From Escherichia coli (GTDB taxonomy: Bacteria > Pseudomonadota > Gammaproteobacteria > Enterobacterales > Enterobacteriaceae): 233 nt of DNA. The position numbers and the translations under genes are program-made. Where the stretch lies: NCBI RefSeq assembly GCF_003334315.1, contig NZ_QOWR01000143.1; one strand, 5' to 3'. Below, in pieces: positions 1 to 233 of the stretch. The notes under the pieces are model-generated. The model was not told the origin of the DNA, ran no database searches, and was given only the letters and a program-made list of their open reading frames with translations. Each line of letters begins with the position of its first letter. Position 1 is the first letter of the stretch.

Positions 1-132
1 CCAACCTTCTGCACCAGAAATAACGGCACAAATAGTCAACAGTAGAATATCCGATAATTTATGTTCCACTTTCCAGGTTTGTCTGTAATCGGGGATAATA
101 GAAATATGTTCCATCAATTTTTTAAGTTCCAT
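1..132 (-). CDS. ISAs1-family (H-repeat-associated) DDE transposase, N-terminal 44 codons; 5' end complete, 3' end runs off the window at position 1
   Basis: Reverse-complement of 1-132 is an open frame starting at ATG (complement of 130-132) with no stop: [44 protein letters not shown]. The motif D-x-R-x(6)-H-x-L-x-D-I-L-x(3)-I-x-A-x-I-x-G-A-x-x-W is the signature of the DDE_Tnp_1-associated N-terminal domain of ISAs1-family transposases. From memory the peptide closely matches the start of E. coli H-repeat-associated proteins (YhhI-like); this was not verified by search. A strong RBS lies at the correct spacing. Confidence 0.88.
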
Positions 133-138
133 TTTGTT

Positions 139-144
139 CTCCTT
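139..144 (-). promoter_or_regulatory. Shine-Dalgarno sequence (AAGGAG) for the transposase
   Basis: Minus strand reads AAGGAG-AACAAA-ATG: a perfect core Shine-Dalgarno hexamer with a 6-nt spacer to the start codon. Confidence 0.75.
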
Positions 145-158
145 AATTAGGTAAGGAG
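139..158. repeat. Perfect 7-bp inverted repeat (CTCCTTA / TAAGGAG) with 6-nt spacer, overlapping the transposase RBS; potential stem-loop
   Basis: Plus 139-145 ctcctta and 152-158 taaggag are exact reverse complements, separated by attagg (146-151). On the minus-strand transcript this is CUCCUUA-CCUAAU-UAAGGAG, immediately followed by AACAAA-AUG. The stem has 3 G:C and 4 A:U pairs and cannot extend (positions 138/159 do not pair). Confidence 0.55.
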
Positions 159-233
159 TATTTGATCATGTATAAGCAATAAAAAACAGCTTCAGGTAAT
201 AAGGAATATCTCAATTTTTAAACATAAAATGCG

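Follow-up and report, generated by a model that had tools for sequence, protein, structure and literature searches.

The window, by which we mean the whole 233-nucleotide stretch of DNA that was analysed, is identical over its entire length to a segment of the chromosome of Escherichia coli K-12 MG1655 and of many other E. coli chromosomes (100% identity). In K-12 this segment contains the 5' end of yhhI, which is encoded on the other strand. The first 44 codons of this gene, recognized from their translation and from the RefSeq annotation as those of the ISEc1 transposase, occupy positions 1 to 132 on the minus strand, with the ATG start codon at 132..130, and the gene leaves the window at its left side. 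The identical K-12 gene is named 'ISAs1-like element ISEc1 family transposase' in RefSeq. Sequences matching the window are found in 5,334 of 5,426 complete E. coli genomes, at a median of 5 places per genome. In K-12, yhhI lies on the minus strand (3,624,378-3,625,514 of NC_000913.3) and is preceded, in the sense of transcription, by a 'lyase'/HEAT-repeat pseudogene, which is yrhC in NC_000913.3, and then by yhhH and rhsB; it is followed downstream by yhhJ. The K-12 locus record is referred to below as L001, and a window coordinate equals the L001 coordinate minus 6000; coordinates above 233 are extrapolated window coordinates and lie outside the window.

The element to which the window belongs is almost certainly ISEc1, an insertion sequence (IS) of 1,291 bp of the ISAs1 family, historically known as the H-repeat (H-rpt) of the RhsB element of K-12. 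It is the element represented in K-12 by the genes yhhI, ydcC, ybfD and ybfL, its sequence here being that of yhhI, and ISEc1 at the RhsB locus of K-12 is an already known element in a known location. The full-length yhhI protein was compared with the NCBIfam equivalog model NF033564 (ISAs1 family transposase), on which it scores 412.4 bits for a cut-off of 70 and covers profile positions 1-314 of 314, in agreement with the family proposed for this DNA in the earlier note. Elements of the ISAs1 family have a single transposase ORF and a length of roughly 1.2-1.5 kb according to the ISfinder description, and they carry imperfect terminal inverted repeats that start with CAGGG. ISEc1 fits this description by its size and its single ORF of 1,137 nucleotides, as well as by its imperfect terminal repeats with a CAGGG start; its non-coding margins are 144 nucleotides at the left end and 10 nucleotides at the right end. 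Insertion was judged by the target-site duplication of approximately 8-10 bp used as a criterion for this family. Such a duplication, of 10 bp, flanks a copy within tssA for which an empty site is also found, whereas none is present at the K-12 yhhI copy. Copies of ISEc1 of 1,291 bp with unlike flanks have been tabulated previously (PMC6963479).

The ends of the element were mapped with a 401-base query running from inside yhhI into the upstream DNA, which was searched against the genomes. Other ISEc1 copies (the ydcC, ybfD, T6SS-adjacent, ICE and O-antigen cluster copies) match this query only from position 1 to 196-201, equivalent to window positions 80 to 275-280, and the yibA genes of other strains match it from query position 192-195 on, equivalent to window positions 271-274. 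In an alignment of eight copies, conservation begins exactly at CAGGGAAAGATCA, the first base of which is L001 6276, or extrapolated position 276. In strain 2018-166, where yibA is intact and occupies the RhsA locus flanked by yibF and yibH, this gene follows the K-12 sequence as far as L001 6277 and departs from it at 6276, and the base immediately outside the left end is variable among 15 copies. The element start is the C of CAGGG on the minus strand, 43 bases past the end of the window. At the other extremity, the copies lose similarity after ...CGTAATCTTGCCCTG (CCCTG); this point is L001 4986, 10 nucleotides beyond the stop codon of yhhI. With its ends at L001 6276 and 4986, the element is therefore 1,291 bp long and reads CAGGG...CCCTG; plasmid-borne copies cover query positions 1-1291 exactly. 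We consider the placement of the left end at extrapolated 276/277 and of the right end at CCCTG as practically certain.

Positions 159 to 233, on the minus strand, correspond to IS positions 44-118 and thus lie within the 144-nucleotide untranslated leader of the transposase gene. With the start of the coding sequence and the end of the IS both mapped, the part of the leader contained in the window extends over positions 133..233 (minus strand, IS positions 44-144), and the remaining 43 bases continue outside the window up to extrapolated position 276 (L001 6234-6276). The region is AT-rich, as had been noted earlier: its GC content is 25%, whereas the window has 32%, the complete leader 28% and the complete element 40%. 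Also as first described, it belongs to the IS without coding for protein; it precedes the transposase ATG, and its ORF content is limited to a 23-codon ORF with a TTG start. Compared to 10 full-length ISEc1 copies, it shows 0-3 mismatches over 75 positions, and eight copies from different genomic contexts are collinear across it. There is hardly any doubt that positions 159 to 233 are an internal piece of the ISEc1 5' untranslated leader, with no terminus or junction among them.

The earlier note, which started from the small non-coding margins of such elements, had expected the terminal inverted repeat and the element/target junction, with its duplication, to fall in or just beyond this region. 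The second half of this expectation was correct, since the terminus is found just beyond, at extrapolated position 276; the first half was not, as the copies remain collinear through position 233. The idea that the inverted repeat and a junction with a target duplication lie inside 159 to 233 has in its favour that short margins are generally expected of IS elements, and the right margin of ISEc1 is indeed only 10 nucleotides. The left margin, at 144 nucleotides, does not conform to it. Moreover, no independent copy loses collinearity within 159-233 or the 43 nucleotides that follow, the CAGGG terminus and the break of yibA homology coincide at 276/277, and the K-12 yhhI copy is devoid of any duplication, so that a junction inside the region is to be regarded as extremely improbable. 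The alignment to other copies that had been proposed as a check gave the outcome that places the terminus outside the window.

The left terminal inverted repeat (IRL), CAGGGAAAGATCATCAAAAG, was located by comparison of the flanks and of the two ends and extends over extrapolated positions 276..257 on the minus strand, outside the window. Retrieval of the other end of the element, as suggested in the earlier note, yielded the matching right repeat (IRR), CAGGGCAAGATTACGAAAGC, without a flanking direct repeat, and the two repeats of the yhhI copy have 14 of their first 18 bases in common. A second class of IRL is found in other copies (…ATCACGTAACGCTGC) and matches the IRR at 19 of the first 30 bases, compared to 14 of 30 for the class of the yhhI copy. 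The yhhI copy thus differs from other ISEc1 copies both by the lack of a target duplication and by an IRL class that is the poorer match to the IRR. The two classes differ at IS positions 14-26 (extrapolated 251-263), where L005 and L007 are distinguished from L001 and L002. The tssA copy, which has a duplication, belongs to the class with the poorer pairing, and this class is therefore still competent. A seed-based repeat search missed this pair of repeats, because IRL and IRR share no exact 6-mer, and the pairs that it returned were at chance level. A subterminal pair of 19 nucleotides with 79% identity (L001 5055-5073 and 6217-6235) was judged not significant among 36 pairs.

Other arrangements of ISEc1 or related ends were observed among the loci compared. 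The ydcC-type copy (L003 and L016) has T as its own first base (TAGGG), and approximately 200 nucleotides upstream of it, tandem partial copies of the left repeat are present (TCAGGGAAAGATCA and CAGGGAAAGATC). In the ICE region of strain 3347558 (L006 2218-2260), two ends of ISAs1-family type are separated by 20 bp (…TCTTTCCCTG - 20 bp - CAGGGAAAG…). These paired ends represent a head-to-tail arrangement of two elements and are located beside a group II intron reverse transcriptase gene.

In strain STW0522-31, tssA is interrupted by an ISEc1 copy that has the same 10 bp, GTCAGTTGAC, on both sides as a direct repeat without mismatch (L002 897-906 and 2198-2207). The empty site, reconstructed by deleting the 1,291 bp of the element together with one of the two repeats, matched intact tssA of other genomes in one ungapped piece over all 400 bases, with 99.3% identity. 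The duplication together with the empty site fixes both termini of the element as well as the 10-bp length of the duplication, and ISEc1 has thus transposed in nature, duplicating 10 bp of its target. According to the E. coli W genome paper, no transposition of H-rpt had yet been recorded (PMC3032704); the tssA case is direct evidence of natural movement, against this description of an event never seen.

The tssA insertion also bears on the view that the H-repeat is a fixed structural module of Rhs elements rather than a mobile one, in which case the search for a junction would be meaningless. Most of the examined copies have no target duplication and adjoin Rhs genes, and both features, like the statement in the E. 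coli W genome paper, are in line with this view. It is nevertheless very unlikely to be right, as it is opposed by the clean insertion into tssA, which duplicated 10 bp and whose empty counterpart is found in many genomes, by the occurrence of copies outside Rhs regions (in an O-antigen cluster, in an ICE and beside nrfB), and by a transposase ORF that is intact and matches the family model.

The flanks of the K-12 copy are of a different nature. The left end adjoins yrhC, a truncated pseudogene that retains the 5' part of a HEAT-repeat gene resembling yibA and lies in the Rhs accessory region that follows rhsB-yhhH. This pseudogene extends from extrapolated position 277 onward (L001 6277-6623), outside the window, as placed by the divergence from yibA at 6277/6276. 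The right end adjoins 64 bp (L001 4922-4985) in which the terminal sequence of annotated IS1397 copies can be recognized with approximately 95-97% identity. This IS1397 stub, which lies 1,015-1,078 bases left of window position 1, is cut exactly at the ISEc1 end, and no mention of it at the right end of the K-12 ISEc1 copy was found in the literature searched. IS1397 belongs to the IS3 family and inserts into the palindromic units of REP/BIME sequences. Like IS1397 copies, the stub adjoins a REP-like sequence, GCCGGATAAGGCG, located after yhhJ; unlike them, it retains only the terminal part, the rest being missing.

No target-site duplication was found at the K-12 yhhI copy, whereas the earlier note had anticipated one at the junction: the left flank, AGTCAACGGC, and the right flank, AATACAGGAC, come from unrelated sources, and comparison with intact yibA shows that this gene does not continue in the right flank. 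The lack of a duplication and the unrelated flanks indicate that the yhhI copy is not a simple insertion, and we infer from these sequences that it was rearranged after insertion. Two ISEc1 copies may have recombined, or the IS may have brought about an adjacent deletion; in either case this secondary event would have removed one of the original flanks of the copy. The reciprocal junctions, consisting either of IRR, duplication and distal yibA or of IS1397 interior, duplication and IRL, are absent from the 5,426 complete genomes, so that either flank may have been the original target and either mechanism may have acted. With its left junction present in 1,806 genomes and its right junction in 2,111, the K-12 arrangement is both old and common.

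The interval between yhhJ and nikR, which in K-12 contains RhsB and ISEc1, is a hotspot of variable islands. A comparison of L017 and L018 showed that it is occupied by a hicAB toxin-antitoxin pair in AR_452 and by a PTS/aldolase/kinase cluster in strain C 237-04. At the RhsA site of strain 2018-166 (L021, between yibF and yibH), an rhsB-type gene with yhhH is followed by an intact copy of yibA, by orphan Rhs tips, by yibG and by a pseudogene of Imm57, which shows that Rhs tips are exchanged between loci.

An autonomous IS has to supply a promoter itself and usually keeps the expression of its transposase low. The sigma-70 consensus scan of L001 6080-6330, comprising window positions 80-233 and the next 97 bases, found 0 promoters compared to 1.0 expected from shuffled sequences, and the initial impression that no convincing sigma70 promoter is present was thereby upheld. 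No promoter attains the usual consensus level of 9 of 12; a relaxed hexamer scan gave two weak candidates on the sense strand, each with 8 of 12. The first is a candidate extended -10 element, TGAGATATT, at 213..205 on the minus strand (IS positions 64-72), with TG at -15/-14. The alternative candidate, also 8 of 12, is the -10 hexamer TATGTT at 226..221 on the minus strand (IS positions 51-56), which is preceded by TTTGCA at extrapolated positions 244-249 with a 17-nucleotide spacer. In an 84%-identical relative carried by pC27A-2, the TGAGATATT motif is kept, whereas the spacer between TTTGCA and TATGTT is 19 instead of 17 nucleotides, which weakens the TTTGCA-N17-TATGTT candidate. Judging from these motifs, the leader probably carries a weak transposase promoter of ISEc1, which would drive yhhI from TGAGATATT at 213..205 or from the TTTGCA-N17-TATGTT pair ending at 221. 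The Cappable-seq supplement contains no entries for the yhhI locus. A weak SELEX peak of the RpoS holoenzyme has been reported between yhhH and yhhI (PMC5493296); it was rejected as evidence for a leader promoter, because after conversion of its coordinates via NC_000913.3 it lies approximately 330 bp upstream of the element.

The sense RNA of the leader contains a predicted hairpin, CUCCUUA-N6-UAAGGAG, at 139..158 on the minus strand, with a 7-pair stem that is present in both the MFE and the centroid folds and a Delta-G of -6.9 to -8.0 kcal/mol. The Shine-Dalgarno sequence of yhhI, 6 nucleotides before the ATG, forms the 3' arm of this hairpin. The stem is invariant in 8 close ISEc1 copies, with no covariation support, and in the 84% relative only its CUCC/GGAG part can still pair. 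The loop contains a C in K-12 and an A in the other copies, and the opposite strand of 139-158 was scored as terminator-like by the scan. The hairpin would occlude the Shine-Dalgarno sequence and could thereby keep the translation of the transposase low, as in other IS elements. The whole leader is predicted to fold no more stably than shuffled sequence (z = -0.63), and a search of L001 5900-6500 on both strands with the Rfam 15 covariance models gave no match at E-values up to 1. While our near-certainty covers the identity and the coordinates of the element, we attach roughly even confidence to the proposed functions of the leader, i.e. a weak promoter and a hairpin masking the Shine-Dalgarno sequence.

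Sequence variation was compared among 11 full-length copies. Variable columns amount to 6 of 75 (8%) in positions 159-233 and to 81 of 379 (21%) at third codon positions (Fisher p = 0.006), and the subterminal IS positions 14-43 are more variable than the 159-233 region. This pattern suggests a modest constraint on the leader, and gene conversion among copies could give the same pattern.

The leader may, on the other hand, be functionless, a neutral spacer kept uniform by recent spread and gene conversion, with yhhI, if expressed at all, being read through from rhsB-yhhH. The missing consensus promoter and the unexceptional fold of the leader would be expected in this case, as would an overall divergence between copies of just 1-5% and the location of the weak RpoS SELEX peak upstream of the element and not within it (PMC5493296). 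However, the leader is less variable than synonymous-like positions of yhhI, to the extent given above, while the subterminal 14-43 nucleotides are more variable, and the hairpin masking the Shine-Dalgarno sequence is kept in every close copy. Furthermore, an autonomous IS that inserts into tssA or into an O-antigen cluster needs its own promoter. We regard a functionless leader as somewhat unlikely, though a serious contender, and favour a leader with a weak promoter and a hairpin covering the Shine-Dalgarno sequence.

Further elements of the leader were considered in this context. The 23-codon ORF with a TTG start, located upstream of yhhI at 214..143 on the minus strand, has its stop codon inside the Shine-Dalgarno hairpin. 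It was rejected as a gene in view of its TTG start, its lack of a Shine-Dalgarno sequence and the indels that break its frame in the 84% relative on pC27A-2, and is probably due to chance. Two GATC (Dam) sites can be read from the sequence, one in the leader at 164-167 and one in the left inverted repeat at extrapolated positions 265-268, outside the window; the right inverted repeat has GATT where the left one has GATC. These two sites may recall the Dam control of IS10 and IS50, or could be a chance occurrence in so short a stretch. In elements of the IS10/IS50 type, the transposase is subject to translational or 'fold-back' control. ISEc1 resembles them in that its predicted stem-loop includes the transposase Shine-Dalgarno sequence and in that GATC is present in the terminal repeat and in the leader. 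It differs from them in that no antisense RNA has been identified for ISEc1 and no Rfam match was obtained; the likeness is no more than a resemblance. A broader role, in which the 144-nucleotide leader with its hairpin, upstream ORF and Dam sites would be a translational control device for ISAs1-family transposases, or would give rise to a small regulatory RNA, appears improbable: the evidence for it is the modest sequence constraint, and the upstream ORF is broken in the 84% relative.

With respect to the stretch that had been singled out, the finding matters little, as it contains nothing new. The analysis removes a false lead, since there is no junction in the window, and it provides exact coordinates for an element long annotated in K-12. 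The copy at the RhsB locus of K-12 is bounded by two truncated sequences, the yibA-like gene on one side and the IS1397 stub on the other, which marks it as the product of a rearrangement.
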